This document shows positions 5,285 through 24,186 of a stretch of DNA of 64,000 nt, piece after piece. The stretch is taken from positions 2,705 to 66,704 of the forward strand of contig JALFFX010000055.1 in NCBI GenBank assembly GCA_022777645.1, in the 5' to 3' direction. The notes under the pieces are model-generated. The model was not told where the DNA came from. It saw only the letters and a list, made by a program, of their open reading frames with translations, and made no database searches. The stretch comes from Erysipelotrichaceae bacterium. GTDB taxonomy: Bacteria > Bacillota_I > Bacilli_A > RFN20 > CAG-826. The position numbers were made by a program, and so were the translations under genes. Positions within the stretch are counted from its first letter, which is position 1. Each line of letters starts with the position of its first letter.

Positions 5285-6734
5285 TAAATTAGCGCTTAAT
5301 GCAATAAGAGCATATAAAGCAAAAGCACTCAAAGACTCTAAAGATGCTAAACCAGAAGGCGATAAAGTGAAAGCCTATAATAATGCATTAACTTATGCTA
5401 AGAAAGAAAATAAACCGTTCATTTATGGCTATACTAATCGTAATGGTAAATTCTTTGCAATTGATACACCAATGAAAGTTTCAGTAAGTCCTGCAGATGC
5501 TGAAAAAGAATTTAGAAAAAGATATAAAAATTGCAGTGTAGTTTATATTGCATATCCAGATAAAGAATTTATTAAAGATGAAAAAATTGATGTTGAAAAA
5601 GAACTTTTAGCAAATCATTTTGAAAAACGTAAATGCAAACCAGGTATCAATGGAAATGATATTTGTTACTATGATTACAAAGGAACGGGATATTTTCCAG
5701 AAGTTGTTGCTAGATTACAAAATAAATTAGGCAAATTTGACTATGTTGGTGAAACTAATAGAATTGTTGGTATTAAACACAAGCATAAATCATTAAAAGA
5801 AGATGCAGTTGAATTATCACTTGGTGAAAAATTAGCAAAAGCAGTTGCAAAAGCATTCAAAGGTCAATGTGGTCCTTTTGGTGGAGAAAATCCAACTAAA
5901 TATGGAAATAAAGTCAGTTTATATTCTCAAGCTGGAGTCACTTGGTACATATTTAATGATGATGGCTCTGTTGATGTTGAACCAGATGATGAAACTATTA
6001 GTTTGGCTGAAGAAGATGGTGAAGAAATTACAACACATTATAATTCAGCAGATGAATTATTTAATGGTGAAGATGGTTGGTTCTATGATGCTCCATCAAG
6101 TTTAGAAAAACAATTTAGAGAAATTTTAAAAACACGTTCAAATGTTAAAGATGCAAATTTGTATATTTACCAATTCCCAGCAAGTATGACTAAAGAAGAC
6201 ATGAAAGAAGCTAAAAAATATGGTTTAGAAATTCTTGGTAAAGTCGGTGAAAATGGTTTTCAACCTGGTGACTGGATTATTCAAGGAACACTTAAACAAC
6301 TTGAAAAATTCTGTGATGAGTCATTAGGTTATGTTATGCACCCAGACTATTTATATAAGTCTAAAGAATTTGATATTGAAGATGTATTAGTCAAAGATGA
6401 AGCACTTGGTGAAGTGCAAGTCGACGAATTTGCTGAAGAAGAACCAAATGTTTCTAAAAAAATTGAACATCAAGGTAAATGGACAAAGAATGAAATCAAT
6501 GGTCAAGAAATGACAGTTGAACAATTCTTAGAAGAATATGATGCTGGAAATTTACCTATAGTAGATGCAATTTATCCAGAGTCAGGTGGTTTTAAAATAT
6601 CAATTGAAGAAGTTAGAAAATTACCAAAAGATACTATGGGTAGATTCTTAATCTATGACGATGAAGTTGAAGTTGATGATGAATTTGGTCCATATATTAG
6701 TCATTTGTTATGGTTTCAAATTGAAGGCATTTAA
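5271..6734 (+). CDS. hypothetical protein (487 aa, acidic C-terminus)
   Basis: long ORF, GGAGG RBS. Confidence 0.7.
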   Translation: MNNNNKLALNAIRAYKAKALKDSKDAKPEGDKVKAYNNALTYAKKENKPFIYGYTNRNGKFFAIDTPMKVSVSPADAEKEFRKRYKNCSVVYIAYPDKEFIKDEKIDVEKELLANHFEKRKCKPGINGNDICYYDYKGTGYFPEVVARLQNKLGKFDYVGETNRIVGIKHKHKSLKEDAVELSLGEKLAKAVAKAFKGQCGPFGGENPTKYGNKVSLYSQAGVTWYIFNDDGSVDVEPDDETISLAEEDGEEITTHYNSADELFNGEDGWFYDAPSSLEKQFREILKTRSNVKDANLYIYQFPASMTKEDMKEAKKYGLEILGKVGENGFQPGDWIIQGTLKQLEKFCDESLGYVMHPDYLYKSKEFDIEDVLVKDEALGEVQVDEFAEEEPNVSKKIEHQGKWTKNEINGQEMTVEQFLEEYDAGNLPIVDAIYPESGGFKISIEEVRKLPKDTMGRFLIYDDEVEVDDEFGPYISHLLWFQIEGI

Positions 6735-6823
6735 AGATAAGCATTAATTTAAAGCATTAAAAAATATATAATCGTATTGAGAAATCAATGCGATTTTATT
6801 TTAAAAGGAGAGAATTTAAAAAT

Positions 6824-6979
6824 ATGAAAAAAGGCTATTATACTGTAGTGTATGATGAAAACACTAATATTTATGCTAGTAAAACATGTAGAACAAAATT
6901 AGGAAGATGGTTCTATATTAAATGTATTGAAAGAAAAGTAAAAAAGGAAACAGGTAAATGTTTGAAATTGGGGATATAG
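6824..6979 (+). CDS. small basic protein
   Basis: start reassigned to ATG 6824 (AAAGGAGAG RBS). Confidence 0.4.
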   Translation: MKKGYYTVVYDENTNIYASKTCRTKLGRWFYIKCIERKVKKETGKCLKLGI

Positions 6980-7179
6980 TATTTATTAAATCTCTTGAAA
7001 AAGAGGGAATGATATTGAATGTAGGGACTGACTTAGAAACAAATGAAACTAAGTACTGTGTTGTTGATACTGAAAAAGTAATATATTTTATTAAAAATAA
7101 TGATATAATTAAAATAGATACTTTAGAAGAACGTTTAGAGGAATATGAAGAAGAAAACTCTAATCATTCACAAGCATAA
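6958..7179 (+). CDS. hypothetical protein
   Basis: 73-aa ORF. Confidence 0.5.
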   Translation: MFEIGDIVFIKSLEKEGMILNVGTDLETNETKYCVVDTEKVIYFIKNNDIIKIDTLEERLEEYEEENSNHSQA

Positions 7180-7206
7180 ATATTTAAGTAAAGGAAGGAA
7201 ATAAAT

Positions 7207-8655
7207 ATGAAAAGAAAAATTAGTGATGCTACTAAAAAATTAATTGACTCTTCAAATGAGTTAAAAAAGAAAATTGATGACGCTTTAGAACAACATCCTG
7301 ATTTAGTCGCTGGTAAAAAAGCATCAGTTGCTTATGATTTAGCAAAACATAAAAGTGAAATCAATGCAACAAAAAATTACAAACCTTTAAGAGATTTAGT
7401 TGTATCTATTTTAGAAAAATCGAGTCAACCAAAAGCAAAAAAGTATTTAGCAAAAATTGAATATGAATTTGATAAAAAAGTTGCTCGTGACCCAAGAGAA
7501 AATAGTTATAATGAACAATTTTGGTTTAATCAACTATTAGCATTTATTTACAACATTATATTAAAAGCTGATAATCTTGGTTCACCAGATGTTAAAGATG
7601 ATGTTAACATTTTAAAATCATTGCAAAAACGTCACTATCAACAAATGCATGATTCATGTGTCATTGATGAGAAAAAATTTAAAGATGCTGAAGAAGGTTA
7701 TGCTGAAAAAGTTTTTATTGATTTCGTAAAAGCATTTAAACAAACATTACCTAACTGGACATTATATCCTGATAAATGGATTCAAAAAGGTGAAAATTCA
7801 TTATTAAAATTTGAAGTAATAATTTATGAAGAAGATGTTGCAGTTGAAGATATGGATAAAGAATTCAATGATAAAGAAGTAAGAAATGTAATTTATCAAA
7901 CAGCTGAAGAAAATATAAAACAAATTTTACCTAGCAATGTTCAATATGAATTCAAATCATTACAAACAAATTTTAAAGCTGATGATGCAAGTTTTTTAAG
8001 ACTTGATAATCATGATATTGAAATGGATAGAAATTTTCTTGCAACATCAGTAAAAAATGGTGATAAAATTGATATGTCATTTTTAGATGATAGACAAAAA
8101 GTAATTGTTATCAATATTCATGATGATGTTGAAGATAAAAATAAATTGTTTGGTTCAATTACAAGTCAATTATATAAACGAGGTGCTCATATTTTTGATA
8201 AAAAATCTGAAAGACCAAATAAGATATTGTATGCATACGAAGATATGCAATTATTTGAATTAAATTTCAATTTATTATTAAATGGAATTTCTCAATGGTC
8301 AGTTGCTAGTGAAAGAGAAAATAGAAAAATTATTGATTTAGATGCATATACAATAAGAGGAACATTTGACTCTATTAAAGATGATGTAGACCCAATGCTC
8401 ATTCTTTGCAGATTACTTGGTGAAGCACATGATAAAGCTATGGAAGCTCTAGATTTAGCAAAAGATTTGATTGAAGAAGGTGAGTTACCATCTAACTTCG
8501 AATATGAATTAATTGATTTAAATGATGAACTTGATGAATTTGATTTTATGAGTGAAAATAACCCTGTTGATGCGTTTAAAGAAAAATTCGGCAAAAAAGA
8601 AGAATTTGATATTAATGATTCTGATTACGATTGGGATTATGAAGAAAATGATTAA
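7207..8655 (+). CDS. hypothetical protein (482 aa, acidic C-terminus)
   Basis: long ORF, AAAGGAAGGAAAT RBS. Confidence 0.7.
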   Translation: MKRKISDATKKLIDSSNELKKKIDDALEQHPDLVAGKKASVAYDLAKHKSEINATKNYKPLRDLVVSILEKSSQPKAKKYLAKIEYEFDKKVARDPRENSYNEQFWFNQLLAFIYNIILKADNLGSPDVKDDVNILKSLQKRHYQQMHDSCVIDEKKFKDAEEGYAEKVFIDFVKAFKQTLPNWTLYPDKWIQKGENSLLKFEVIIYEEDVAVEDMDKEFNDKEVRNVIYQTAEENIKQILPSNVQYEFKSLQTNFKADDASFLRLDNHDIEMDRNFLATSVKNGDKIDMSFLDDRQKVIVINIHDDVEDKNKLFGSITSQLYKRGAHIFDKKSERPNKILYAYEDMQLFELNFNLLLNGISQWSVASERENRKIIDLDAYTIRGTFDSIKDDVDPMLILCRLLGEAHDKAMEALDLAKDLIEEGELPSNFEYELIDLNDELDEFDFMSENNPVDAFKEKFGKKEEFDINDSDYDWDYEEND

Positions 8656-8697
8656 TCATTGACACTAAAACAGCAGTTAGTAGATATGATTATAATG

Positions 8698-8727
8698 AAG
8701 GTGACTTACAAGTCACCTTTTATTTTT
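8698..8727 (+). terminator. rho-independent terminator
   Basis: AAGGTGACTT-ACA-AGTCACCTT hairpin + TTTTATTTTT. Confidence 0.6.
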
Positions 8728-8775
8728 AAAGATGATTGTTTACTTTATTAAAAAACAGTTTATAATTAATAATAG
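8728..8775 (+). promoter_or_regulatory. promoter with TTAAAGAT element and TATAAT
   Basis: TTTAAAGATGATTG...TTTATAAT directly abutting the terminator T-run. Confidence 0.4.
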
Positions 8776-8882
8776 GAGTTATCTAAAGTAAAGAAATTAG
8801 AAATAATTATTGAGTTTGTAGCTTGCTACTTAGGAGATGATTATTGAAGGTTTCAAGAAATAGATAAATCTTAGAGCTCGAG

Positions 8883-8915
8883 AAAATGGTGGTTGCAAAC
8901 GCCATTTTTTATTTG
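8883..8915 (+). terminator. rho-independent terminator
   Basis: AAAATGGTG-loop-CGCCATTTTTT hairpin + T-run. Confidence 0.5.
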
Positions 8916-8920
8916 TTCTT

Positions 8921-8990
8921 TTTAAAGATAACAATGTATCTTTAACATAAAACAATATAAAATATAACATATATACAAGGAGAGATAATT
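8921..8990 (+). promoter_or_regulatory. promoter with palindromic AAAGATA-N6-TATCTTT element
   Basis: TTAAAGATAACAATGTATCTTTAAC then A/T-rich -10 candidates, then GGAGAGATAATT-ATG. Confidence 0.5.
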
Positions 8991-9629
8991 ATGAACGAAT
9001 TAATTTTAGAAACTCAATCAAACGTAGAACGTCAAGAAGAAGCAATTAAAGAAAAACAAAGATTAGTCAAAGAAGTAGCACATCATTATCATATTGATAG
9101 AGATGTAATTTATGCTTATGCTGATTATTTGCATTATTCTGGAAATGCATGGGAAGAAGGAAATCCATTAAAACTTGTTTCAGGAGAACATGTCAAAGAT
9201 AAAATATCACCTACATTTATTAAATTATTAAATATAATTAACGTATTAAGAGATGTTAGTGATTTAGAATTTTTAAGACCATATTTAACAGCATTAAGAG
9301 AACATGGTATTGATATTAAAATTGTTCCTCATGACTCATTAAGTGATAAAACTTTTTTAGAAGATAATATGGCTTTAATTGAAGAACAACAATGTATTAT
9401 TTGTGAAGAATCAGATTTCTTAAAATATAAAGGTGAAGAAGCTGAAGAAAATCAATTTAGTACAAAGAATAAATTTAAAGAACTTACTGAGTCTTACTAT
9501 AAAATTAATAATGGAATTAAATCTGAAAAAGTTATTAATAAATTAACAAAAGATATGTTTAAAAACCATATAAATAACAATGGTATTAGTGAAATTATTG
9601 GCGAACAAAAACATGAAGAGGAAGAATAA
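8991..9629 (+). CDS. hypothetical protein
   Basis: 212-aa ORF with consensus RBS. Confidence 0.7.
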   Translation: MNELILETQSNVERQEEAIKEKQRLVKEVAHHYHIDRDVIYAYADYLHYSGNAWEEGNPLKLVSGEHVKDKISPTFIKLLNIINVLRDVSDLEFLRPYLTALREHGIDIKIVPHDSLSDKTFLEDNMALIEEQQCIICEESDFLKYKGEEAEENQFSTKNKFKELTESYYKINNGIKSEKVINKLTKDMFKNHINNNGISEIIGEQKHEEEE

Positions 9630-11209
9630 TGTCTATTTATTCAAAATTATTTGAGTATCAGAAAAAGATAGTTGATAATAATATAAATAAAAATGCATAT
9701 GGGCTATTTGTAGACATGGGATTAGGAAAAACTCCCATGTCTCTTGCTTTTGCTGAAAAGCATAATTGTACAAAAATATTAATTATTACAACTGCATCAA
9801 AAGCAACTGAAGATAAAACAGTTCATGGGTCATTTTTCTATTGGGCTGCTCAATCATCAATTAAATATAATTTGTATGATAAAAGATATAATTTTGACAA
9901 TAAAGGAGCAAAAAAGTGGAGAGCACAAATTTCACCAGATACTGTTGACATATTTATGACTAATCATGAGTCAACATTTATCAGAGGTGGTGAAAATACT
10001 CGCAACACATCAATGCTAAATAAACAAGTATATGAATTTATAGAAAGTTGTCGAAATCAAAATGTTGCAATTATTGTCGATGAGTCTCACAAAATAAAAA
10101 GTAGAAGTTCAAGTAGAACAAAAGCTTTAATGAAAATTAAGTCACTCTGTGACACAATTAGCAAAAATACATATTTATATTTATTGACTGGGACTCCATT
10201 TACAAAAGGGTTTGAAGATTTATATACTCAATTAAATTTGCTTGGTTGGGATAAATCTTGGACAACATTTAAAGAAACATTTTGTGTTATGGGCAATATT
10301 CCATCATTAACATCTTGGCAACAACCAATTGTTGATTATAAGAATATACCATTATTATTTAATTTAGTGCACAATTATGCTGTGACAATAAAATCTGAAG
10401 AAGTGTTAGATTTACCAGAACAAATCTTTGTATATCATGAACTTCCATTAAATCAACAAATGTTATTGTTCACTTGTAAAAAGTTGCGTGCACAAATTAT
10501 TAATAAAGAATTAAACGCACGTCATATAAATGAATTTGTCAAGCCTGGTGAAAAAGATGGAAAAGTCAATAATATGTTTTATGCAAATATTGCTTATCCA
10601 AACTTAAATTGGCTTGCAGATAGTGTGACAAAGTTTTATACTAGAGCAAGACAATTGAGTATTGGATTCCAAGGTAATAGTGAAAATGCAATGTGGTTTC
10701 AAAAAGCTCGTTTAGCTGAACTTGAAAAACTATTAACTGAACATGAAGACAATTATATTTTGTTCTATAATTACACACCAGAGTTTGTCGAAATATATGA
10801 TATGTGTGAAAGATTAGGTTATAAAATTGATGTTTGTAATGGTTTGATTAAATCAGAAACATTTTATAACGAATATTGCAATTTGTCAGAAGGTCTTAAA
10901 TTAGTTGAAAAGAAACGAATAATGTTAGTCAATTATGGTAGTGGGTCAGAAGGTAAAAATTGGCAAGAATATGATAAATGTATCTTGTTTAGTCTCCCAG
11001 TATTTAAAGATTGGCAACAAGGGTTAAAACGAATTCATAGACCAGGACAAAAAAATAATGTTATTTATCATGTGTTTTATGAAAATAATTGGCTTGATAG
11101 AAGAATGATGGAGTCATTAAAAGAAAAGAAAATATATGATGAAAACATGTTTATGAATGATTTAGCTCGAATTGATAATTTAATTGCTGAAGATTTACAA
11201 GTAAAGTAA
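9629..11209 (+). CDS. SNF2/DEAD-like superfamily-2 helicase
   Basis: motif I FVDMGLGKT, motif II IIVDESHKIK, motif III LLTGTPF; ATG overlaps the upstream stop. Confidence 0.7.
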   Translation: MSIYSKLFEYQKKIVDNNINKNAYGLFVDMGLGKTPMSLAFAEKHNCTKILIITTASKATEDKTVHGSFFYWAAQSSIKYNLYDKRYNFDNKGAKKWRAQISPDTVDIFMTNHESTFIRGGENTRNTSMLNKQVYEFIESCRNQNVAIIVDESHKIKSRSSSRTKALMKIKSLCDTISKNTYLYLLTGTPFTKGFEDLYTQLNLLGWDKSWTTFKETFCVMGNIPSLTSWQQPIVDYKNIPLLFNLVHNYAVTIKSEEVLDLPEQIFVYHELPLNQQMLLFTCKKLRAQIINKELNARHINEFVKPGEKDGKVNNMFYANIAYPNLNWLADSVTKFYTRARQLSIGFQGNSENAMWFQKARLAELEKLLTEHEDNYILFYNYTPEFVEIYDMCERLGYKIDVCNGLIKSETFYNEYCNLSEGLKLVEKKRIMLVNYGSGSEGKNWQEYDKCILFSLPVFKDWQQGLKRIHRPGQKNNVIYHVFYENNWLDRRMMESLKEKKIYDENMFMNDLARIDNLIAEDLQVK

Positions 11210-11228
11210 AATATAATACAATAATATC

Positions 11229-11423
11229 ATGTTAACTTTAACTGAATGTCCTTGCAAATGTTGTGTACCACCAAAACGTACACCAACATGTCATCCGAGC
11301 TGTAAAGTATATTTGACTTGGAAAAAAGAATTAAATGAGTTTAATAAAAAACTCAGAGAAAAACAAAGATATGAAACTATAGCAGATAATTATCATAGAG
11401 TTAAAAAAGGAAGAAATAGATAA
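11229..11423 (+). CDS. small Cys-rich (zinc-ribbon-like) protein
   Basis: CPCKCC...CHPSC cysteine cluster; no clear RBS. Confidence 0.4.
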   Translation: MLTLTECPCKCCVPPKRTPTCHPSCKVYLTWKKELNEFNKKLREKQRYETIADNYHRVKKGRNR

Positions 11424-11440
11424 AACTTCCTTTTTTTATT
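11405..11440 (+). terminator. rho-independent terminator
   Basis: AAAAGGAAG-loop-CTTCCTTTTTTTATTT. Confidence 0.55.
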
Positions 11441-11500
11441 TAAAGATAATTGTGTATCTTTGTAAAAAATGTATTATAATTTTAAACAAGGAGAGATAAC
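11441..11500 (+). promoter_or_regulatory. promoter with AAAGATA-N6-TATCTTT palindrome
   Basis: TTAAAGATAATTGTGTATCTTT ... TATAAT ... AAGGAGAGATAAC-ATG. Confidence 0.55.
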
Positions 11501-13237
11501 ATGCCAGAAAAAGTCGATATTGAAAAGAAATTAGATAACATCGTTAAAGGTGTTGAAACAAATTACTGGAAAAACTTTACATTATCTGAATGGCGTTTAA
11601 AATTAGCATCTGAATGTCAAGTGTATGTTCATGATGAAAATTACCTTGCAAAAAGATTTGACCAAATAAACTATAAGTTTGTGTCACAAAAAACTGCAAT
11701 GGAAATTTTAAAAGATAATTTATATGCTATTTTGCGTTATAAATATCTAACAAAATCAACAGATGAAGTTGAACAAAGAATTAAAGAAATTGTTCGCTCA
11801 TTTTTAGATAATATTAAAACGTCATTAATTAGAATTAGTTTTAATCCTGATACTGAATGTAAATATGTTAGATGGTTGCCAGATGGTTGTGTTGCTTTCA
11901 GAAATGGTGTATTTGATTTTAGAGAAAATAAATGGTTATTTCAATATCAAAAAATTCGTATTGAAGAATTAAATAATAACATTTATATTTATGACCCAAC
12001 TTATATCATTCAATGGTATATTAATATTGAATTTCAACCGTTAGATGGTATATCAGTCAACAATATGTCTCTTGAAGATTTTACATTATTTATGAAAGAA
12101 TATGATAAAGTCTCAAGAAATTATTGTTTTGAATTAATGTATAACATGTCTCATGATTATGATAATAATTTTAGTAAATCACAATTTAAACATTTATGTG
12201 AAATACTTGGTTATTTGTGCAATCAGTCATTTTTACAATACTTTGTATTATTTATTGGTACTGGTCAAAATGGTAAAAACTCATTATTTGATGGATGTTT
12301 TCTATCAAGAGCAATTCCAATGGCTGCTAATAATGACTTAAATGCTATTGAAGAAGATAAGTTTGTGTCAGGCTCACTTGAAAATAAACCTTTTAACATA
12401 TATTTAGAAACTGATGCAGAAACAATTACAAAATCTAAAAATTTAAAAGCAATTACAGGTTCAATGTATCAAACAATTGAGCACAAAGGTGAAGATAAAG
12501 TATCAGGTATTATTAATTGTAAATTTATTTGGGCAGGTAATGACCAAGATAAAATTAAGTTTAGTGATAATACAACAGGATTTCGACGCAGAATTAACAT
12601 CTTTGAAACATATTACACATGGGATGCTAAAAAGAAATTCTTGTTAACTGGTGATTATTATGATACAACATTTTCACAAGATTTACATGAATTGAAAGAT
12701 GATATACTAAACACAATTGTATTTATTTATTTCGCAATGTTTGGTATTAAATCTGCAACAAACAATTTTACAAAACAATTCTCATTTACAAGCAACGATT
12801 GGAAGATGCAATATGTTGACGCAGACTTTGATTTAAAGGAAAAATTAGATAGAATATCACTTGAAAAAATCAATGATTGGATGTCTAAAACTAGAAATCA
12901 TGAAGCTGCAAAAACATTGTTCTATGATAAAACTCGTAAAAGATTATATGACTCAGCATCTATTAGAGAATTAGGAATTAATAATTTTGAAGAGTTTGTT
13001 GAAAAATTTATTAAAAATGATGAAGTGTTCTTACAATACTTTATTGATAATGATTACTGTTATATGTCTATTCGTCATATTCAAGAAATGAGTGGAACTG
13101 GTGATAAATATGAGCCAACTACATTCACTCAAAACTTAAAAAAGATTTATGGAGTAAGACGAACTGAAAATTTATTTAATAACAAACCTTATGTAAAAGT
13201 TAAGTTTGTTAATAATAAATTAAAAATTATGCAGTAA
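11501..13237 (+). CDS. D5/P4-type primase-helicase (SF3 NTPase)
   Basis: Walker A LFIGTGQNGKNSL typical of D5_N / P4 primase C-terminal NTPase; 578 aa. Confidence 0.6.
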   Translation: MPEKVDIEKKLDNIVKGVETNYWKNFTLSEWRLKLASECQVYVHDENYLAKRFDQINYKFVSQKTAMEILKDNLYAILRYKYLTKSTDEVEQRIKEIVRSFLDNIKTSLIRISFNPDTECKYVRWLPDGCVAFRNGVFDFRENKWLFQYQKIRIEELNNNIYIYDPTYIIQWYINIEFQPLDGISVNNMSLEDFTLFMKEYDKVSRNYCFELMYNMSHDYDNNFSKSQFKHLCEILGYLCNQSFLQYFVLFIGTGQNGKNSLFDGCFLSRAIPMAANNDLNAIEEDKFVSGSLENKPFNIYLETDAETITKSKNLKAITGSMYQTIEHKGEDKVSGIINCKFIWAGNDQDKIKFSDNTTGFRRRINIFETYYTWDAKKKFLLTGDYYDTTFSQDLHELKDDILNTIVFIYFAMFGIKSATNNFTKQFSFTSNDWKMQYVDADFDLKEKLDRISLEKINDWMSKTRNHEAAKTLFYDKTRKRLYDSASIRELGINNFEEFVEKFIKNDEVFLQYFIDNDYCYMSIRHIQEMSGTGDKYEPTTFTQNLKKIYGVRRTENLFNNKPYVKVKFVNNKLKIMQ

Positions 13238-13251
13238 GGAAAGGAGAAACT

Positions 13252-13503
13252 ATGGCAAAAGATGTATTCCCAGTTAGTTCTGAAGTAATTGCATCTGCAT
13301 TAAAAGATGGAATTATTGTTAAAGATGCTTCAACTGGCACTTGGAAACCTTTTATTGGAATTGTTATTTTAGAATATATTGTTCAATTTGAACAATTTGC
13401 TCTATTATATACAGGCAGAAATCCTCAAGATGCAAAATTAGCATTTTTAGCAGAATATAAAAAATCTTGGGATTTGAAAAAACCATTGAAAAAAGAAGAT
13501 TAA
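13252..13503 (+). CDS. hypothetical protein
   Basis: 83-aa ORF, AAGGAAAGGAGA RBS. Confidence 0.55.
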   Translation: MAKDVFPVSSEVIASALKDGIIVKDASTGTWKPFIGIVILEYIVQFEQFALLYTGRNPQDAKLAFLAEYKKSWDLKKPLKKED

Positions 13504-13505
13504 TT

Positions 13506-14258
13506 ATGCCAAGAACAAGAAAAACAAAAGCACAAAAATTAAGAGAAATGAGATTAAATTCTGTTCCCTTCAATGAATTGTCAGTTCTTGATAAAAGTTA
13601 TTTAAAAAGATTAGATGAAGATAAAAGATATTCATTAGAAATCGACCCTTATAATTTATATGAATTCGACGATGTACATAAACAATTTATTTATTATTAT
13701 GTACAACATCGAAATGTGCCACTTGCTGCAAAATTAGCAGGCATTAATGAAAACAAAGGAATTGAACTTTTTAGAGAACATGCTGTTAGAGAAGAGATAG
13801 ATAGAATCAACATTGCAATGTATGCTAGAAATTTCTCAACAAAAATGTTGACATTAGAAGAAATTGGTGCATATCTTAGTGCAATTGCTACAGACCAAGT
13901 ACCTGATGTTGATAAACTCTCAACAAAAGATAAAATACCAGTATTAAAAATGTTAGTTGACTTAAACGTTTTAAAGAAAGATGGATATGATAATCCTCAA
14001 GTAATTGAAGCAATTGAAATTGAAAAAGATGTAGAAAAATTATCTGTCAAAGCAATTAAAAATCTTATTGATGCAAGTTATGATACAACAGAAGCAGATA
14101 AAGATGATATTATTAAAAGTTTAAATGTTGATGCGTCATTATCTGAAGATGATATAACATTCTTAAAATCACTTTCAAAAGATGACTTATTAAAATTATT
14201 AAATGATTTATCAGATAAAAAAGAAAAAGGAGAAAATACAGATGGAAATGAAAACTAG
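13506..14258 (+). CDS. putative DNA-binding protein with terminase-small-subunit-like N-terminal HTH
   Basis: start reassigned to ATG 13506; segment QFIYYYVQHRNVPLAAKLAGI resembles TerS N-terminal HTH. This assignment is tentative. Confidence 0.3.
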   Translation: MPRTRKTKAQKLREMRLNSVPFNELSVLDKSYLKRLDEDKRYSLEIDPYNLYEFDDVHKQFIYYYVQHRNVPLAAKLAGINENKGIELFREHAVREEIDRINIAMYARNFSTKMLTLEEIGAYLSAIATDQVPDVDKLSTKDKIPVLKMLVDLNVLKKDGYDNPQVIEAIEIEKDVEKLSVKAIKNLIDASYDTTEADKDDIIKSLNVDASLSEDDITFLKSLSKDDLLKLLNDLSDKKEKGENTDGNEN

Positions 14259-14466
14259 AAGAAACTATCCTGAAAAACTCAAATCGCATAAAGAACATGC
14301 ATTTGAATTATATGGAATGTCATTTGAAGATTTTGAATTATATTGTGATAAAACTGGAAAACCATCATATAGTAGACAATCAAAAACTGATTTCTTCAAA
14401 GCATGTAATGATTGTGAATTAGTTAAAAAAGATGGCAAATTATTTTTAAAAGGAAGAGAACTCTAA
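14242..14466 (+). CDS. hypothetical protein
   Basis: start reassigned to ATG 14242 after AAGGAG. Confidence 0.45.
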   Translation: MEMKTRRNYPEKLKSHKEHAFELYGMSFEDFELYCDKTGKPSYSRQSKTDFFKACNDCELVKKDGKLFLKGREL

Positions 14467-14654
14467 TGCAAAAAGTAATTATTAAAATTTATATTAAGAA
14501 AAAAGTATCACCATTAGCAACAGTTGAAATTGAAGATGCAAAGAAATTTGATGAACTTTTTGATAATATTGAAAATGCAAAATCTGTTGTTAAGTTCGGT
14601 CAAATTATGTTCTTAAAAACTGAATTTAGATTTGCAACATTGACTTTTAAATAA
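14466..14654 (+). CDS. hypothetical protein
   Basis: 62-aa ORF, ATG overlaps the upstream stop. Confidence 0.45.
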   Translation: MQKVIIKIYIKKKVSPLATVEIEDAKKFDELFDNIENAKSVVKFGQIMFLKTEFRFATLTFK

Positions 14655-14680
14655 GTGCATTGAAAAATGCACTTTTTCTT
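14654..14680 (+). terminator. rho-independent terminator
   Basis: GTGCATTG-AAAA-ATGCAC hairpin + TTTTTCTT running into TTAAAGATAA. Confidence 0.55.
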
Positions 14681-14745
14681 AAAGATAATTATTTATATTT
14701 AAAACAGTATGTTATACAATATAATCAACAAAGGAGTGTAATATT
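14680..14745 (+). promoter_or_regulatory. promoter with TTAAAGATAA element
   Basis: CTTAAAGATAATTATTTATATTT ... TACAAT ... AAAGGAGTG. Confidence 0.45.
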
Positions 14746-14943
14746 ATGGATGTAGTATATTATGCAATAATTTATTTAAAAGATATGCAAGACGTTTTCA
14801 CTGAAATACACATGAAACCGTTTGAGACAAAAGAAGAAGCTCAAAAATGTTGCAGCAAAGTGAATAACGTGTATGGTGAAAGAGTTCTTAAAACAAAAAT
14901 TAGAAGAACTGACTTAGCAAAAACCGGTGAATTCTGGTTATAA
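14746..14943 (+). CDS. hypothetical protein
   Basis: 65-aa ORF with RBS. Confidence 0.5.
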   Translation: MDVVYYAIIYLKDMQDVFTEIHMKPFETKEEAQKCCSKVNNVYGERVLKTKIRRTDLAKTGEFWL

Positions 14944-14964
14944 ATTATTTAGGAGAGATAATTA

Positions 14965-16152
14965 ATGAAAAGTAAATTTATTACTCACATCGTTTTAGAA
15001 GGATGTGATGGAGTTGGTAAAGACTCAATTATGGCTGATTTATGGCCAAAGTATAATTTCAGATACAGAGTATTAATGAGAGGTGAACTTTCAGATTTTG
15101 TTTATTCAAGAAAATATAATCGCGAATTTATCTCAACACAAAGAGGTTTACCTTTTCTTTATGTTTTAATTACAAAAGATGTCAATGAAATTCGTAATCA
15201 AATTATCAAACGTGGTGAAGATGTTGAAAATGAATTGAAAAAATTAGCAGACCAAGAACTTTTTAAAACTTGTGCAAAAATCTTTGAACAAGATTATCAT
15301 ATCATAGTTGTTGATGTCACAGGATTGACAATTCAAGAAGGTTCTGAGAAGGTTTTTAATGAAACATTAAAATATATTAATAATTTAGATAAAGATGACG
15401 AGCCAAATGAGTTTAATAAAATGTATATCAAAGGTGCAAATAAACTTGGACTTAAATGGACAGTTAGAAATAATCAACCATTTTTAGATGGTGAAATGAT
15501 TATGGCAGATGCACAATTACACAATGGTCGATTTGAAACATACGATAATCGTGATATGCCTCATAACTTAATTTTTAGTATCGGATATGATTATCAAAAT
15601 GAAGATACAATTGATGAATTTATGTCAAGACCATATGATTTTGCTTATCCAATTAATAGTAAAATTTTAGTTCGTGGTGAAATATATGATTACATTGATA
15701 AACTCTGTCGAAACAATTTAACATTAGTCACAACTGACTCAAAGTATATTCCACCATTTGAAAACTTAATTAGAGTTGATAAAGTATTTGGCGATGATTA
15801 TATCAAAATGTTAACACAAGCAAAAGCAACATTTTATTGTTCAAGAGATTTAGCATATCTTGAAATGATGACAGTAAGATGTTATGAAGCAGTAAGAGCA
15901 AATCAATTAATATTTGTTGATAGATTGACTGACCCTGAATGTAAAATTTTAAAAGCAATTCATGGGACAAGTTTAGATGACATTATATTGAGTAAATTAT
16001 GGTGTACTGAAAATACATTGACAAATAATTATAAAGAAATTATTAAAAATAAAGAACTTGTTAAATTAATTTTGAAAAATCAAAGACAATGGTATCAAAA
16101 TTTATGCAAAGAGTTATATAATAAAAAAGTTAAAAAATGGCGAAGAAAATAA
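14965..16152 (+). CDS. P-loop (deoxy)nucleoside-monophosphate kinase-like protein with ~200-aa C-terminal extension
   Basis: N-terminal VLEGCDGVGKDS resembles the thymidylate/dNMP kinase P-loop (xEGxDGxGKxT); 395 aa is far longer than standard dNMP kinases. Confidence 0.5.
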   Translation: MKSKFITHIVLEGCDGVGKDSIMADLWPKYNFRYRVLMRGELSDFVYSRKYNREFISTQRGLPFLYVLITKDVNEIRNQIIKRGEDVENELKKLADQELFKTCAKIFEQDYHIIVVDVTGLTIQEGSEKVFNETLKYINNLDKDDEPNEFNKMYIKGANKLGLKWTVRNNQPFLDGEMIMADAQLHNGRFETYDNRDMPHNLIFSIGYDYQNEDTIDEFMSRPYDFAYPINSKILVRGEIYDYIDKLCRNNLTLVTTDSKYIPPFENLIRVDKVFGDDYIKMLTQAKATFYCSRDLAYLEMMTVRCYEAVRANQLIFVDRLTDPECKILKAIHGTSLDDIILSKLWCTENTLTNNYKEIIKNKELVKLILKNQRQWYQNLCKELYNKKVKKWRRK

Positions 16153-17928: not shown

Positions 17929-18966
17929 ATGAGAAAAACTCTCAAAATGGTTCTTTATGGGGAACCTGGCGAAGGTAAATCAACATTTGTTAGTAAATCA
18001 AAAAACCCATTTTATATTTCTACTGATGGTAATTTTGAATGGTTAGATTTACCTGAACAAAACCATAAACAAATATTCAGTTTTACTGAATTTAAAAACA
18101 TTGTTAAAGACATGATTGACAATCCTGCAAAATATGCTCAATTTGATGTTATTGCAGTTGACTTGATTGAAGATGTCTTTAAATGGTGTGAATTCGAATA
18201 TTGCAAACGTAATAGAGTTGAACATGTTGGTGATATTGGCTATGGCAAAGGCTATGACATCAGCAGAAATGAATTCTATATTGAGATTTGTAAATTATTA
18301 GGATTAGACAAACATGTCGTCTTAATTGCACACGGTTTTACAAAGACTGAAACAAACAATCGTGGCGTTAACGTTACAAAATACTTACCATCTGATAGAA
18401 TTCCTTCTAAAGTTTGGGATATGATTGAAGGTCGTGTAAGATATTTCTTAAGAGCATTTAGTCGTGATGAAGAAACAAGTGAAGGTAAGTTTGTTAAACG
18501 TAGATACTTATCATTGATTCCAAAACAAGGTGAATATGGTATTTCTAGAGGTTTAAATGAAGCTGAAGTTCCTGAAGATATTGATTTAGACTGGAATACA
18601 TTTATCACAGTTATTGGTTTAGAAGATGATGCAACACCAGTTGTTGAAACACAAAAATCAAGAAAACCAAAAATTATTAAAACAGAACAAGTTAAAGAAG
18701 AACCAAAACTTAAAGCAGAACCAAAAGTTGAATCTGCACCTATTGTTGAAGAAAAACAAAAAGTTGTAGAAGAACCAAAAGTTGAATCTGCACCTGTTGT
18801 TGAATCTGCACCTGTTGTTAAAGAAGAACCAAAAGTTGTAGAAGAACCAAAAGTTGAAGAAAAACAAGCACCTATTGTTAAAGAAGAACCAAAAGTTGAA
18901 CAAGTTAAAGAAGAGTCTATGGCTGAAAGAATTGCTCGTATTAAAGCTCAATTTGGTAAAAAATAA
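17929..18966 (+). CDS. AAA_24 / Sak4-like ATPase with C-terminal PEK-rich tandem repeats
   Basis: Walker A MVLYGEPGEGKSTF; C-terminus made of repeated EEPKVE / ESAPVV units. Confidence 0.55.
   Translation: MRKTLKMVLYGEPGEGKSTFVSKSKNPFYISTDGNFEWLDLPEQNHKQIFSFTEFKNIVKDMIDNPAKYAQFDVIAVDLIEDVFKWCEFEYCKRNRVEHVGDIGYGKGYDISRNEFYIEICKLLGLDKHVVLIAHGFTKTETNNRGVNVTKYLPSDRIPSKVWDMIEGRVRYFLRAFSRDEETSEGKFVKRRYLSLIPKQGEYGISRGLNEAEVPEDIDLDWNTFITVIGLEDDATPVVETQKSRKPKIIKTEQVKEEPKLKAEPKVESAPIVEEKQKVVEEPKVESAPVVESAPVVKEEPKVVEEPKVEEKQAPIVKEEPKVEQVKEESMAERIARIKAQFGKK
18690..18900 (+). repeat. in-frame tandem 18-36 nt repeats (GAAGAACCAAAAGTTGAA / GAATCTGCACCTGTTGTT)
   Basis: directly visible as reiterated nucleotide units encoding EEPKVE/ESAPVV. 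Confidence 0.7.
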
Positions 18967-20490: not shown

Positions 20491-20973
20491 ATGTGCGACG
20501 AAGATTTAGATTTAATTAATGATGAGTCTCATTTAGAAGACTTAGAAAATGAAAGATATAATCGACCATCTTGGCAACAAACATTTATTGATGTCGCCAA
20601 AGTTGTTTCAAAACGCAGCAAAGACCCTCATACAAAAGTAGGTTGTGTTCTTGTTAAAAATAATTGTATTGTTGCAACAGGTTATAATGGTGACCCAAGA
20701 GAATTCAGATATGAGTTTAATTGGAATACTGAAGAAAAATATAATTATGTTGTTCATGCAGAAATGAACACAATCGCAAATGCTGTATATAATGGAGCAG
20801 GAAATAATATTAAAGATGGTGAAGTCTATTTGACATTATCACCTTGTAGTAAATGCATTTTATTGCTCATTCAATTCGGCATTAAAAAAGTTTATTATCT
20901 TGAAGAATATAAAGATTTTGAACTTACAAAGAAAATTGCAGATAATGCAAACATTCGATTAATAAAAATATAG
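20491..20973 (+). CDS. dCMP deaminase
   Basis: zinc-binding signature HAE (VVHAEMNTI) and PCxxC (SPCSKC). Confidence 0.8.
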   Translation: MCDEDLDLINDESHLEDLENERYNRPSWQQTFIDVAKVVSKRSKDPHTKVGCVLVKNNCIVATGYNGDPREFRYEFNWNTEEKYNYVVHAEMNTIANAVYNGAGNNIKDGEVYLTLSPCSKCILLLIQFGIKKVYYLEEYKDFELTKKIADNANIRLIKI

Positions 20974-20984: not shown

Positions 20985-21719
20985 ATGAGAATATTTGAAG
21001 GAAACACTATTGCTGAAGTATATGGTGATGCTGTAAAAAGTCTTTTAACTGCTGATGTAGTTGGAAGTACTAGAGAAATTAACAACTGTGTTCTTATAGT
21101 TCACAATCCAACATTAGAAAACATTTCATTTCCATATCGTAAACCTTTATCATTAAAATATTCAAATGCAGAATTAAGATGGTATTATTCAGCTGATAAT
21201 TCTTGTCACACAATTGGTCAACATGCTAAAATGTGGTTATCATTATCAGATGATGGTGAAACAAACAATTCTGCATATGGTTATATTTTATTTAAGAAAT
21301 ATGGATTTAATCAATTAGAACAAATTATTGAATTATTGAAGAAAGATACAACTACTCGTAGAGCTGTATTGAATATATCAGACCCATCAATTAATCGTAT
21401 TACTACAAAAGATATGCAATGCACAATTGCTCTTGATTTCTTAATTCGTAATGGTGAATTAGAAGAAACAGTTGTGATGCGTTCAAATGATGTGTTTTTC
21501 GGTTTTCCATATGATTATATATTCTTCGTTAGTTTAGGACAATATATTGCTAAAAGATTAGGACTTAAATTAGGTTTATATACACATCATGCAATATCAT
21601 TTCATATGTATTTAAGAGATGTTGATAATTTTAATTACCAAAATTCAACAACATTTACAATTGACGCAGAATCTATTATTAAGGAGTGTTATGAATATGA
21701 AAAGAATAACACCAATTAA
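20985..21719 (+). CDS. thymidylate synthase (ThyA)-family pyrimidine-nucleotide C5-transferase, divergent (candidate dCMP hydroxymethylase/methylase)
   Basis: aligns by eye to ThyA core: MQC (PCH, catalytic Cys retained), MRSNDVFFGFPYDY (QRSCDVFLGLPFNI, Asp at the N177-equivalent position), ISFHMY (GDTHLY). Confidence 0.6.
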   Translation: MRIFEGNTIAEVYGDAVKSLLTADVVGSTREINNCVLIVHNPTLENISFPYRKPLSLKYSNAELRWYYSADNSCHTIGQHAKMWLSLSDDGETNNSAYGYILFKKYGFNQLEQIIELLKKDTTTRRAVLNISDPSINRITTKDMQCTIALDFLIRNGELEETVVMRSNDVFFGFPYDYIFFVSLGQYIAKRLGLKLGLYTHHAISFHMYLRDVDNFNYQNSTTFTIDAESIIKECYEYEKNNTN

Positions 21720-21963
21720 AGTTAGATATTTAGCAAATGAAATTCATGATTTATTCAATATTTGTTTAGATAATGCATTAGCATTATTAAATGATGATGA
21801 ATTAGGAAGATGTTTTGATGATAATAATGAAATTGATATGAATTATATTGAAGTAAAAGTTATCAATCCAAATGCTACATTAAAGATATTATATGATGCA
21901 GCAACATTATTAGATAAAATGTCAAGTATTTATGATAAGGAGAGAACAGTAAATGAAAATTAA
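21691..21963 (+). CDS. hypothetical protein
   Basis: start reassigned to ATG 21691/21697 after AAGGAG; overlaps the end of the ThyA-like gene. Confidence 0.4.
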   Translation: MNMKRITPIKVRYLANEIHDLFNICLDNALALLNDDELGRCFDDNNEIDMNYIEVKVINPNATLKILYDAATLLDKMSSIYDKERTVNEN

Positions 21964-22366
21964 ATTATTTGATAAAAATGTAAAAATACCTACTAAGTCA
22001 CATTCTACTGACTGCGGATTAGATTTATATTTACCAGAAGGTTTTATCATTAAACCATTAGAAACTATATGTCTTGGACTTGGTATTGGTTTCTCAGTTC
22101 CAGAAGGAGCTGCAGGAATATTTGTTCCAAGAAGTAGTATTGCTAAAAAAGGTTTAGTAATTACACCTGCAATTACTGACTGTGGCTATAGTGGAGAAAC
22201 ACATTTGATTTTGACAAATTGTTCAAATAATACTTATACATTTAACAAAGATGATAGAGTTTGCTCATTTGTTTGTTTCAATATCATAAATCCACTTATC
22301 GAAATAGTTGATGAATTACCATCAAGTGAACGTGGTGACAAAGGTTTAGGTTCAACTGGTAATTAA
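21953..22366 (+). CDS. dut: dUTPase (trimeric dUTP diphosphatase family)
   Basis: all five dUTPase motifs are present: DCGLDL, PRSS, ITDCGYSGE, DRVCSF, ERGDKGLGSTG. Confidence 0.8.
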   Translation: MKIKLFDKNVKIPTKSHSTDCGLDLYLPEGFIIKPLETICLGLGIGFSVPEGAAGIFVPRSSIAKKGLVITPAITDCGYSGETHLILTNCSNNTYTFNKDDRVCSFVCFNIINPLIEIVDELPSSERGDKGLGSTGN

Positions 22367-22368: not shown

Positions 22369-24186
22369 ATGAAAATAATTATTTGGGATTTTGAAGTATT
22401 TAAACATGATGTCTTATTAGGGACAATTATTGTTGACGGACAAAATCAAACTGTTTATCAAACATGGGATGAAGATGAAATTAGAGCATTCTATCAAGAA
22501 CATAAAAATGACATTTTTGTTGGACATAATTCTACATATTATGATGACCTTATATTAGAAGCAATTGTTCAGCATAAAAGTGCTTATGAAAAATCACAAC
22601 AAATAATTAATGGTGGAATTAGACGTAAAGCAAAATTTCATTTATACTCATATGATTTAATGTCAGTAAGTAGAACACCATTTAGTTTAAAATTAACTGA
22701 ATTGATTTGTGGTAAAAACATTCATACAACAGACGTTGATTTTAATTTAGATAGACAATTAACTGATGAAGAAAAAAAGTTGACTGAAAGTTATAATTTA
22801 GATGATTTAAAACAAACATTATATAACTTCAATATGTTCTTCAATCAGTTTAAATTAAGAATGCAAATTATTCAAAAATATAATTTAGATTTAATGCATA
22901 ATTTGAGAGTCACAGGAACACAATTGGCAGCTAATGTTTTAGGCGCACACAATGACCCTTCATTAAAACATAAACCAATTCCTGCTGAAATATATCCGAC
23001 ATTAAGATTAGAAAATAAACGTCTTCGTGAATTTTATTTAAATGAAGAGTTTAGACAAGGTAAATCTGATATAATTAATGTCGCTGGAGCAGAATTGACA
23101 ATTGCTGCTGGTGGAATTCATTCAGCAATTAAAAAATTTCATGCACCAAAGATATTTTATGCAGATGTATCTGGCTATTATAATCTTGTTATGATGAACC
23201 TTGATTTATTACCAAGAACAATGCCGACTGAATCAAAAGAAGCATATGAGTTTATGTATCATGAACAATTACGTTTAAAGAAACATCCGGAACTTGCTGA
23301 TGAACGTTCAATGTATAAGACAATTTTGTTGTCAGTATTTGGAGCAATGAATAATGAATATACAGATTTCTATGACCCTTGGAAAGCATTATTAGTTACT
23401 ATCAGCGGACAATTATTCTTAGTTGATTTATTAGAAAAAATGGAAGGACTTGTCACAGTTGTGCAAGCAAATACAGATGGTTTAATGCTAATACCAAATG
23501 ACTGGAATGATGAACCAAAACTTATTAAAATAATTGAAGAATGGGAAGCACGTACAGGATTTGTTATTAAAAAGGAACATGTGTATAATTTATGGCAAAG
23601 AGATGTTAACTGTTATATTTGTCAAGATGAAAAAGGTGGAGTAATTTTTAAAGGTGATACATTCAGAAATTATGTTGTTGATGATGTTCAATATGCATCT
23701 TGTCGATTATTTGATTGTAAAGAACCACCAATTATTGCACAAGGAGTAGGAGATTATTTGTTATATGGTAAATTACCAGAAGATACAGTAAAAGAAAAAG
23801 CTCAAAACTTAATTTTATTCCAATATGCATGTAAAAAATTAAGTTATAATTATATGACTGAAGATAAGATATTGTTATATAAAACAGAAAGAGGTAAAAT
23901 AAAAGAAGAGTTAATTTCATCTAAAGTAGTCAAACCATTAAATCGTGTATTTGCTGCTAAACCAGAATATGTTGAAGGTTTGCCAATAATCACAATTCTT
24001 ACAAAACATAAAGATGCTAATGGTAAACATAGTACATCGAAAGTCGCAAACTTACCTGACTCAGTATTTATCTATAATGAAGATATAACAAATGCTTATG
24101 ATAAATTAAAAGATAAAATAAATTGGCAATATTATATTGACCGTATTTACGAAAAAATATTAGATTTCATGCCGGAAGGAGATTAA
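22369..24186 (+). CDS. family-B DNA polymerase, compact phi29-like type (605 aa)
   Basis: ExoI DFE, ExoII HNSTYYDD (HNxxFD-like), motif A YADVSGYYN, motif B KTILLSVFG, motif C ANTDGLML. Confidence 0.55.
   Translation: MKIIIWDFEVFKHDVLLGTIIVDGQNQTVYQTWDEDEIRAFYQEHKNDIFVGHNSTYYDDLILEAIVQHKSAYEKSQQIINGGIRRKAKFHLYSYDLMSVSRTPFSLKLTELICGKNIHTTDVDFNLDRQLTDEEKKLTESYNLDDLKQTLYNFNMFFNQFKLRMQIIQKYNLDLMHNLRVTGTQLAANVLGAHNDPSLKHKPIPAEIYPTLRLENKRLREFYLNEEFRQGKSDIINVAGAELTIAAGGIHSAIKKFHAPKIFYADVSGYYNLVMMNLDLLPRTMPTESKEAYEFMYHEQLRLKKHPELADERSMYKTILLSVFGAMNNEYTDFYDPWKALLVTISGQLFLVDLLEKMEGLVTVVQANTDGLMLIPNDWNDEPKLIKIIEEWEARTGFVIKKEHVYNLWQRDVNCYICQDEKGGVIFKGDTFRNYVVDDVQYASCRLFDCKEPPIIAQGVGDYLLYGKLPEDTVKEKAQNLILFQYACKKLSYNYMTEDKILLYKTERGKIKEELISSKVVKPLNRVFAAKPEYVEGLPIITILTKHKDANGKHSTSKVANLPDSVFIYNEDITNAYDKLKDKINWQYYIDRIYEKILDFMPEGD

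Follow-up and report, generated by a model that had tools for sequence, protein, structure and literature searches.

A phage gene joining a minimal nucleotide kinase to a T4 BGT-type glycosyltransferase domain, with a predicted role in 5-hydroxymethylcytosine glycosylation

Sugar-decorated cytosines are a major means by which phages evade restriction enzymes and CRISPR, and the phage T4 beta-glucosyltransferase (BGT) is the standard reagent for mapping 5-hydroxymethylcytosine (5hmC). In the BGT structures, R191, R195, and R269 hold the UDP diphosphate, E272 holds the ribose, and Asp100 of the N-terminal domain (N-domain) is the catalytic base. Nucleotide kinases are also found near phage glycosyltransferase (GT) genes: RB69 (gp45, gp46:47, gp48), DLP3 (gp78-80), and RL38J1 (gp214-216) carry trios of a nucleotide kinase, glycosyltransferase 1 (GT1), and a ThyA homolog, and the gp1-type deoxynucleoside monophosphate (dNMP) kinase of RB69 and DLP3 was shown to phosphorylate modified dCMP (PMC13326640). 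Kinases are never mentioned in a survey of phage DNA glycosyltransferases (bioRxiv 10.1101/2023.12.21.572611), they likewise go unmentioned in the MetaGPA study, and a Tevenvirinae survey goes no further for RB69p045 than 'presumably' involved. Here, we analyzed a 64-kb stretch of contig JALFFX010000055.1 (hereafter, the window), which encodes a protein of 395 amino acids at 14965..16152. We describe it as a chimera in which a minimal dNMP kinase precedes the donor half of a BGT-type DNA glycosyltransferase, with a probable role in 5hmC glycosylation. We found no description of such a kinase-BGT chimera in the searchable literature, a scope outside of which most subscription journals fall.

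The chimera gene is a complete coding sequence (CDS) on the forward strand (ATG at 14965, stop codon at 16150-16152), and a Shine-Dalgarno sequence (AGGAG, 14952..14956, forward strand), read from the sequence, lies 7-8 nt upstream of the ATG. The encoded protein begins with ITHIVLEGCDGVGKDS. Because the G+C content of the window is 29.1% (71% A+T), an open frame of 1.2 kb is very unlikely to have arisen by chance. A search of 5.8 billion proteins yielded 58 full-length homologs (373-403 aa, 37-99% identity), all of which are metagenomic and unnamed, and 42 full-length members were used for the family alignment (counts out of 42 refer to these). The mean consensus fraction in this alignment was 0.60 for the N-terminal 140 residues, 0.57 for the middle 80, and 0.58 for the C-terminal 160. 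The full-length architecture is rare, with about 25 clusters at E < 1e-30, many of them fragmentary, in a hidden Markov model (HMM) search of 1.84 billion cluster representatives, and megablast and tblastn searches against 50,697 deposited phage genome records returned zero matches to the gene. Single-sequence searches of Pfam, NCBIfam, and the PDB (phmmer) gave only sub-threshold kinase matches and none for the C-terminal part, and a PADLOC scan returned only P-loop noise. The AF2 model of the full 395-aa protein has a pLDDT of 92.8 and a pTM of 0.87. A UniProt/BFVD entry that belongs to the family (A0A8S5VBD8 from Myoviridae sp. ctbEa13; 379 aa, 43% identical) is named 'Deoxyguanosine kinase', a label that fits its N-terminal third only and masks the glycosyltransferase domain.

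Residues 1-140 (14965..15384, forward strand) form a minimal TMPK/YorR-like P-loop nucleotide kinase domain, as identified by hhalign, PF02223, a PDB profile search, and Foldseek. A Walker A motif of the TMPK type (E-G-x-D-G-x-G-K-[ST]-T) is present as E12-G-C-D-G-V-G-K19-D-S, with the P-loop G13-C-D-G-V-G-K19-D-S21 at 15001..15027 (forward strand). Glycines 13, 16, and 18 and K19 occur in 42/42 members, followed by D/S/N/T at position 20 and T/S at position 21. Over the domain as a whole, the invariants are G13, G16, G18, K19, R39, G40, S43, R53, R83, F100, and Y111. Among these, R39 aligns with the Arg of the YorR D-R-F motif (E41 is present in 39/42 members) and R83 aligns to the LID region. 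The sequence-only reading had recognized a TMPK/dNMP-kinase-like P-loop at the N-terminus, a claim that is weak for the single sequence and solid at the level of the family. On its own, the window protein matches PF02223 at E 0.032 (14.4 bits; cut-off 27), TIGR00041 at E 0.012 (15.3 bits; cut-off 83.25), and the PHROG 761 'thymidylate kinase' at E 3e-8. At the family level, PF02223 matches 34/42 members at E<0.1 (best E 1.4e-7), and among the solved structures of the PDB, the family profile matches a thymidylate kinase (9wd2, E 1.9e-4), Fap7/AK6 adenylate kinase, and YorR of SPbeta. When the AF2 model was searched with Foldseek, its N-terminal part matched Fap7/AK6 and TMPK structures.

The closest relatives of this domain are not fused to a GT. 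In the HMM search of cluster representatives, the N-terminal domain alone matched hundreds of standalone proteins of ~135-150 aa, and a profile built from 30 phage proteins of this size aligned to residues 6-132 with a probability of 99.0% (hhalign, E 4e-18). The standalone family has the invariants D10, G13, K14, R34, and R48 and the near-invariants S38, Y42, R84, and F105, which correspond, respectively, to D15, G18, K19, R39, R53, S43, Y47, R83, and F100, all invariant in the fused family. Because the fused domain has retained all of these residues, we argue that it still binds nucleotides and probably turns them over. The standalone kinases (P0085, P0281, and P0307; similar to YorR, PDB 2axp/3kb2, and to PHROG 761) resemble the window kinase in profile match and invariants, and they too are encoded beside ThyA/ThyX, dUTPase, and dCMP deaminase genes; they differ from it in that the window kinase is fused to a GT domain. 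The N-terminal domain is a non-canonical thymidylate kinase, which is short, has a variable residue in place of the Asp of the 'DR' motif, and falls below the curated thresholds. It comprises ~140 aa, 50-70 residues fewer than a full-size TMPK (~190-210 aa), and its P-loop is separated from the R39 motif by about 20 residues. T4 gp1 (PDB 1dek/1del), a dNMP kinase whose P-loop is of the same G-K-D-[ST] type, would share the proposed phosphorylation of 5-hydroxymethyl-dCMP (5hm-dCMP) as a functional analogue only, given that the window domain is ~100 aa shorter and that no search returned a sequence or fold match between the two. No other nucleotide-kinase-like Walker A motif occurs in the 64-kb window.

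Residues 223-395 (15631..16149, forward strand) form the C-terminal (nucleotide-sugar-binding) Rossmann domain of a GT-B enzyme with a long C-terminal helix, which resembles that of T4 BGT according to Foldseek; PF13524 (Glyco_trans_1_2) matches 11/42 members. The top PDB fold match of the full AF2 model is T4 BGT (1qkj, E 1.8e-5). When residues 141-395 were modelled separately (pLDDT 90.6), Foldseek ranks 1-6 in the PDB were all T4 BGT entries (E 6.5e-6 to 2.6e-4; TM-score 0.52-0.54; root-mean-square deviation [rmsd] 4.1-4.6 Å over ~208 columns), ahead of other GT-B enzymes. The sequence-only reading had described a C-terminal region of ~200 aa with no known function and had proposed structure prediction of this half. 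The region is real, but it is ~255 aa long and includes a BGT donor-binding domain, which that reading had missed. At the sequence level, a deep search found three proteins of ~370 aa that match the C-terminal part only (E 4e-11 to 9e-7) and that carry PF09198, the T4 BGT N-domain (E 1e-16 to 1e-20); one of these aligns to T4 BGT at E 4e-30. The stretch with significant homology to the BGT family spans residues 267-379 (15763..16101, forward strand), over which the C-terminal alignment matches both the PF09198-bearing proteins (hhalign 98.4%, E 9e-15) and a 41-member BGT-family alignment (98.2%, E 4.8e-14).

This stretch contains the motifs T303-x-R305-x-Y307-E308 and F317-V-D319...D323-P. The first corresponds to T267-L-R269-V-W-E272 of T4 BGT and F317-V-D319 corresponds to L-I-D (T4 BGT numbering was mapped through the alignment of P0087 to 1bgt). 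Residues T303, R305, Y307, E308, F317, D319, and D323 are present in 42/42 members, as are K233, R237, and E239. Both nucleotide-binding and donor-binding residues are conserved, and we are highly confident of the identities of the kinase domain and the BGT-type donor domain. The protein resembles T4 BGT (PDB 1bgt/1qkj/1j39) in its homologous C-terminal domain, in R305 and E308 as counterparts of R269 and E272, and in its setting in a phage cluster with a ThyA paralog of the dCMP-hydroxymethylase type. It differs in that the BGT N-domain is absent, with a 140-aa kinase and an 80-aa segment in its position in the chain. This segment (residues 141-222; 15385..15630, forward strand), predicted as a helix, a small three-stranded sheet, and two helices, has no significant match. 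Its invariants are N151, Y154, Q171, G188, E191, and Y208, position 182 is acidic in 42/42 members (D 34, E 8), and H186 is present in 38/42. Judged by this conservation, the segment is clearly predicted to be functional, and it is a candidate for the acceptor site and the catalytic base. A further protein (P0071, 430 aa) combines a GH94 'supersandwich' fragment (Pfam E 7e-39) with the complete middle-plus-GT part and lacks the kinase, which points either to an artefact of assembly or to another fusion partner of the GT half.

Based on Pfam and PHROG scans of 20 neighbouring open reading frames (ORFs), the chimera gene lies in a replication module with the order SNF2 helicase, DUF5906 primase/helicase, chimera, PD-(D/E)XK nuclease, AAA_24 ATPase, SSB-like protein, primase-like protein, dCMP deaminase, ThyA paralog, dUTPase, and DNA polymerase. 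The last four are encoded on the forward strand: the dCMP deaminase at 20491..20973 (PF00383, E 4.9e-27), the ThyA paralog at 20985..21719, the dUTPase-family enzyme at 21953..22366 (PF00692, E 4.3e-26; PF22769 DCD, E 4.9e-7), and the polymerase at 22369..24186 (phrog_1252, E 2.7e-98). The window polymerase is ~30% identical to those of Paenibacillus, Enterococcus, and Staphylococcus phages. A tblastn search of the window for a second GT or for sugar-nucleotide genes of the kinds present in sister phages found none.

The ThyA paralog is predicted to be a 5hm-dCMP synthase (dCMP hydroxymethylase) from its PDB relatives and its signature residues. Its best PDB relatives are the CMP hydroxymethylase MilA (1.3e-22) and the T4 dCMP hydroxymethylase (3.5e-13), and true thymidylate synthases (TS) score 1e-10 or worse. 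Aligned to E. coli ThyA (with which the catalytic residues aligned cleanly), it retains Cys146, Arg166, Ser167, Asp169, and Tyr94, it has Asp in place of Asn177 and a further Asp at the Leu143 position, three residues ahead of the catalytic Cys (register set by a gapless alignment with MilA), and it is without the TS C-terminal tail. N177D specifies dCMP, an acidic residue at Leu143 accompanies hydroxymethylation and not methylation, and the recently discovered 5-hydroxy-dCMP synthases are recognised by D169N (Lee et al. 2026, PMC13326640). Because the paralog has Asp at position 177, an acidic residue at position 143, and an unchanged Asp169, its predicted product is 5hm-dCMP, and the base of the pathway is predicted to be 5hmC and not 5-hydroxymethyluracil (5-hmU). 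RB69-type 5-hydroxycytosine (5hoC) chemistry was rejected for this paralog given the retained Asp169; the corresponding motif is 'RSQN' in RB69 gp48 and 'RSND' in the window. Phages with a 5-hmU DNA kinase (5-HMUDK), such as SP10, likewise encode a P-loop kinase near a ThyA-family hydroxymethylase; the window differs in its cytosine-type ThyA, in the GT partner of its kinase, and in having no thymidine-hypermodification enzymes among the 20 ORFs scanned.

The association between the chimera and the ThyA paralog, suggested by the sequence-only reading, was strengthened by comparisons with other phages. In four sister phages (L001-L004), the homolog of the chimera is 40-48% identical and its gene abuts or overlaps the ThyA paralog and dUTPase genes, with the polymerase gene following shortly downstream. 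The ThyA paralogs of these four phages have the same signature as that of the window, and Asp is found at the Asn177 position in 6/6 ThyA paralogs or homologs examined (window, L001-L004, and L006, a different phage described below). In three of the four sister phages (L001, L003, and L004), a second GT gene lies beside the chimera gene: a TET-associated glycosyltransferase (TAGT) in L001 (E 1.7e-6, above the Pfam threshold) and L004 (E 6.7e-5), and a GT1-like gene in L003 (E 1.1e-4). The chimera is constant and the other GTs are variable, which is the pattern expected if the sugar next to the base were attached by the chimera and then extended by the other GTs. Another sister phage of the window (L008, NCBI GCA_043955425.1) has a standalone kinase of 135 aa (93%, E 3.4e-7 against the family alignment) between the ThyA paralog and the dUTPase. 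In this phage, a 236-aa protein with no Pfam match is encoded between the ThyA paralog and the standalone kinase (5307-6017). It may be an alternative modification enzyme; an origin as a split-off GT C-terminal domain was rejected (hhalign E 0.51, no Pfam match).

One sister phage stands out for the genes around its chimera. In the 59-kb phage contig L001 (Logan SRR16020829_39371), a cluster at 9289-15969, all of it upstream of the dUTPase and polymerase, encodes in order the ThyA paralog, the chimera, the TAGT, a 507-aa fusion of a choline kinase and a nucleotidyltransferase (LicA/LicC-like), a 518-aa BCCT choline-type transporter, and a 283-aa LicD. This cluster could attach phosphocholine to a DNA-linked glycan, so that the L001 glycan may carry a further decoration; decoration of the host cell surface is the alternative. 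To our knowledge, phosphocholine on a DNA-linked glycan has not been described.

The kinase family is tied to ThyA and ThyX outside of the chimera as well. In a different phage (L006, ENA ERZ4258480 NODE_102, 80 kb), a 437-aa protein consists of a kinase (97.1%, E 6.6e-11 against the standalone profile) fused to a complete ThyA homolog, the latter with the same hydroxymethylase signature (D-x-x-C / RSND / Asp177). A second, standalone kinase of 134 aa is encoded 5 nt upstream of a full-length T4 BGT-family gene, whose product matches the window C-terminal domain (78.7%, E 1.7e-5). The cluster (4296-10900) also encodes a 567-aa protein of the CofD family (CofD is the 2-phospho-L-lactate transferase), an IspD/NTP-transferase, and a TAGT-like GT. 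It is a rich candidate hypermodification cluster. Moreover, a family of proteins of ~290-310 aa (P0093, P0097, P0110, P0116, P0130, and P0153) joins a minimal kinase to a C-terminal ThyA-like segment. This segment resembles only the catalytic half of ThyA ('SRRFIY..sCIS...RSSNV...DYEF') and matches the window ThyA paralog at E 3e-5 (BLASTP). In L007, where no GT is encoded in the vicinity, the end of a ThyX gene is overlapped by a standalone kinase gene. Given these fusions and adjacencies, a kinase for the product of a ThyA-family enzyme is the most economical function. One candidate for a TAGT-kinase fusion (P0098) was dropped, given that BLASTP against the TAGT-like protein gave E 0.42 and that only a weak GT2 Pfam match was found.

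Taken with the domain identities and this genomic linkage, the chimera is probably a two-activity enzyme of cytosine hypermodification, that is, a 5hm-dCMP kinase joined to a 5hmC glycosyltransferase. The assignment to the 5hmC-glycosylation pathway is likely, and the exact mechanism, in which the kinase acts on 5hm-dCMP and the GT acts on DNA, has in our estimate an even or slightly better chance of being correct. In this mechanism, the dUTPase-family enzyme and the dCMP deaminase would set the pyrimidine pools, the ThyA paralog would convert dCMP to 5hm-dCMP, and the kinase domain (residues 1-140) would phosphorylate the latter to the diphosphate, as T4 gp1 does. A phage kinase is presumed to be needed because of the analogy with T4 gp1 and the co-expression design used in a recent study (PMC13326640). 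The host NDP kinase and then the phage polymerase, which must accept the modified dNTP, would put 5hmC into DNA. The BGT-type domain would bind a UDP-sugar and move its sugar onto the 5-CH2OH of 5hmC in DNA, with K233/R237 and R305 holding the diphosphate and E308 holding the ribose or the sugar. Because the BGT N-domain, with its DNA binding and Asp100, is missing, the kinase and residues 141-222 (position 182, H186, and E191) would supply the acceptor side. The hm-dNMP kinase role put forward in the sequence-only reading is, accordingly, the best reading of the kinase half, except for its hm-dUMP version, since the ThyA paralogs are of the cytosine type. That reading had also set a kinase fused to an unrelated, well-known domain against its proposal; the fused domain is well known, yet it belongs to the same DNA-modification pathway. 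The family shows that a BGT-type donor domain fused to a nucleotide kinase can function, or at the least be kept by strong selection, after loss of the DNA-binding half typical of BGT. Glycosylated 5hmC is predicted in an uncultured low-GC phage lineage with a polymerase closest to those of Firmicutes phages.

Several results weigh against this interpretation. With respect to the acceptor side, PF09198 (the BGT N-domain with INFFGG and Asp100) has no match in the window protein or in any of the 42 members. The best local alignment of D/E182 ('MIMADAQL') with the BGT Asp100 segment ('YVMTDGQL') is not significant (E 0.18), and neither is that of D225-F-x-Y228-P-I-N-S-K233...R237 with the diphosphate-binding R191/R195 loop of BGT (Y-G-G-S189-F-R191-x-x-x-R195; E 0.13); the equivalence of D/E182 to Asp100 and of K233/R237 to R191/R195 is put forward as a pair of hypotheses. 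The C-terminal domain profile alone fails to reach T4 BGT in the PDB by sequence. Globally, the full model superposes poorly on BGT (TM-score 0.39, rmsd 16 Å), and the BFVD model of the 43%-identical homolog superposes at a TM-score of 0.62 only. The kinase domain shows no similarity to the BGT N-domain profile (hhalign E 0.38). Because the global superposition is poor, the claim of replacement is limited to chain order: the kinase occupies the place of the N-domain along the chain, not demonstrably in space. With respect to the kinase, the residue after the P-loop Lys (position 20) is mostly Asp and not Ser/Thr among the 42 members, position 38, where the TMPK 'DR' motif has its Asp, varies (V/H/M/C/D), and the window protein alone is under the curated cut-offs of every kinase model. 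In addition, a second dNMP kinase exists besides the GT-adjacent one in RB69, DLP3, and contig L006, a hint that the function of the GT-linked kinase may differ from simple hm-dNMP phosphorylation. Finally, a dCTPase was not identified, so cytosine may not be fully replaced.

The trios of RB69, DLP3, and RL38J1 are among the closest described systems, and they bear on where the first sugar is added. Like the window, they bring together a small TMPK/YorR-like kinase, a first GT, and a cytosine-specific ThyA homolog near replication genes. They differ in that the genes are separate and in the opposite order (GT, then kinase), that GT1 is GT4-like and not BGT-like, and that the ThyA homologs carry D169N and make 5-hydroxy-dCMP, whereas the window paralog keeps Asp169. 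Orthology with the RB69 kinase and GT1 was rejected, given that only the P-loop aligns for the kinase (35% probability) and that the GT gave no alignment.

A different way to arrange the same two domains is glycosylation at the nucleotide level, which we regard as rather unlikely. Here, the kinase domain would form the acceptor half of a GT-B-like clamshell, holding 5hm-dCMP or its diphosphate in the NMP site, the BGT-type domain would add the sugar, the same kinase would phosphorylate before or after this step, and the polymerase would incorporate a glycosyl-hm-dNTP. This arrangement would fit the loss of the DNA-binding N-domain and the presence of a nucleotide-binding domain in its chain position, and the pTM of 0.87 suggests that the two domains pack against each other in a fixed manner, although the BFVD model of the 43%-identical homolog (TM-score 0.62) indicates that the inter-domain arrangement is not robustly predicted. 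It would also fit the recurrence of small kinases beside the first GT in unrelated lineages despite another dNMP kinase (RB69, DLP3, RL38J1, and L006), but the RB69 kinase and GT1 are non-homologous to the chimera beyond the P-loop, which makes the parallel an analogy only. Single GTs were inactive on 5hoC-DNA, and the authors of that study did not distinguish nucleotide-level from post-replicative first glycosylation (PMC13326640). Against these points, all characterised BGT-family enzymes and other phage DNA GTs act on DNA, and the fusion of consecutive pathway enzymes is common and does not require a shared active site. If glycosylation did occur at the nucleotide level, the chimera would be a new kind of glycosyltransferase in a phage that polymerises already glycosylated dCTP, and this would explain both the kinases beside GT1 in RB69, DLP3, and RL38J1 and the failed first transfer on DNA. 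Whichever arrangement is correct, a single polypeptide with both domains bears on the role of small TMPK-like kinases beside the first DNA glycosyltransferase and on the level, nucleotide or DNA, at which the first sugar is attached, both of which are questions of the field (PMC13326640).

It is improbable that the protein is an ordinary dTMP/dNMP kinase that boosts dTTP for a 71% A+T genome and is fused to a GT with a non-DNA acceptor (for example, host teichoic acid or a phage protein). Plain dTMP-kinase duty is suggested by standalone kinases that adjoin ThyX without a GT (L007), and the choline kinase/cytidylyltransferase, BCCT, and LicD genes that follow the GT genes in L001 are the classic set for surface phosphocholine. 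However, the closest relatives of the GT domain, by sequence and by fold, are the DNA-modifying T4 BGT family, ahead of other GT-B enzymes, and the neighbouring accessory GTs in the sister phages are TET-associated DNA glycosyltransferases. In addition, the gene is situated in a block of replication and nucleotide metabolism, not of lysis or lysogeny, and is tied to a hydroxymethylase-type ThyA paralog. Distinctly improbable as well is a catalytically dead kinase domain that serves as a structural or DNA-phosphate-binding stand-in for the BGT N-domain, with the GT alone being active. The lost Asp of the 'DR' motif, the non-canonical residue after the P-loop Lys, and the sub-threshold scores of the window sequence in all curated kinase models would be consistent with such decay, but all of the invariants of the standalone kinases are also invariant in the fused family, the N-terminal domain is as conserved as the GT part (0.60 vs 0.58), and the window has no other candidate 5hm-dCMP kinase.

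An hm-dUMP kinase or a 5-HMUDK for thymidine hypermodification, the latter also raised by the sequence-only reading, is highly improbable: the neighbours of this P-loop kinase do include a set of enzymes that jointly supply dUMP (ThyA paralog, dCMP deaminase, and dUTPase), and Foldseek gave a weak, marginal match to the Bacillus phage SP10 5-hmdU DNA kinase (E 8.9e-4, TM-score 0.25, rank 31, BFVD), but no Pfam or PHROG match of that kind was found, the 6/6 ThyA proteins with Asp at position 177 have CMP/dCMP hydroxymethylases as their closest relatives, the kinase is partnered with a sugar transferase and not a pyrophosphorylase-type transferase, amino-acid/polyamine transferases of thymidine-hypermodification pathways were not found in the scans of the 20 neighbouring ORFs (the window was not scanned exhaustively), and, as general background, dCMP deaminase and dUTPase occur in the 5hmC-making T4 too.

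Other features of the window were noted around the chimera gene. Upstream of the SNF2 helicase, three ORFs (5271-6734, 7207-8655, and 8991-9629; 487, 482, and 212 aa) gave no significant match in Pfam or PHROG. A terminator-like hairpin (14653-14674; 9-bp stem with a T-tail) is followed directly by a promoter-like site (14698-14725; TTTAAA-16-TATAAT), which suggests a transcription unit boundary ~250-300 nt upstream of the chimera gene, before a 65-aa ORF (14746-14943). Downstream, the AAA_24 (Sak4-like) ATPase (CDS 17929-18966) ends in a tail of ~100 aa that is rich in Lys, Glu, Pro, and Val and is made of imperfect repeats (18640-18960; EEPKVESAPVVESAPVVKEEPKVVEEPKVEEK), a feature that is unusual for the AAA_24 family.

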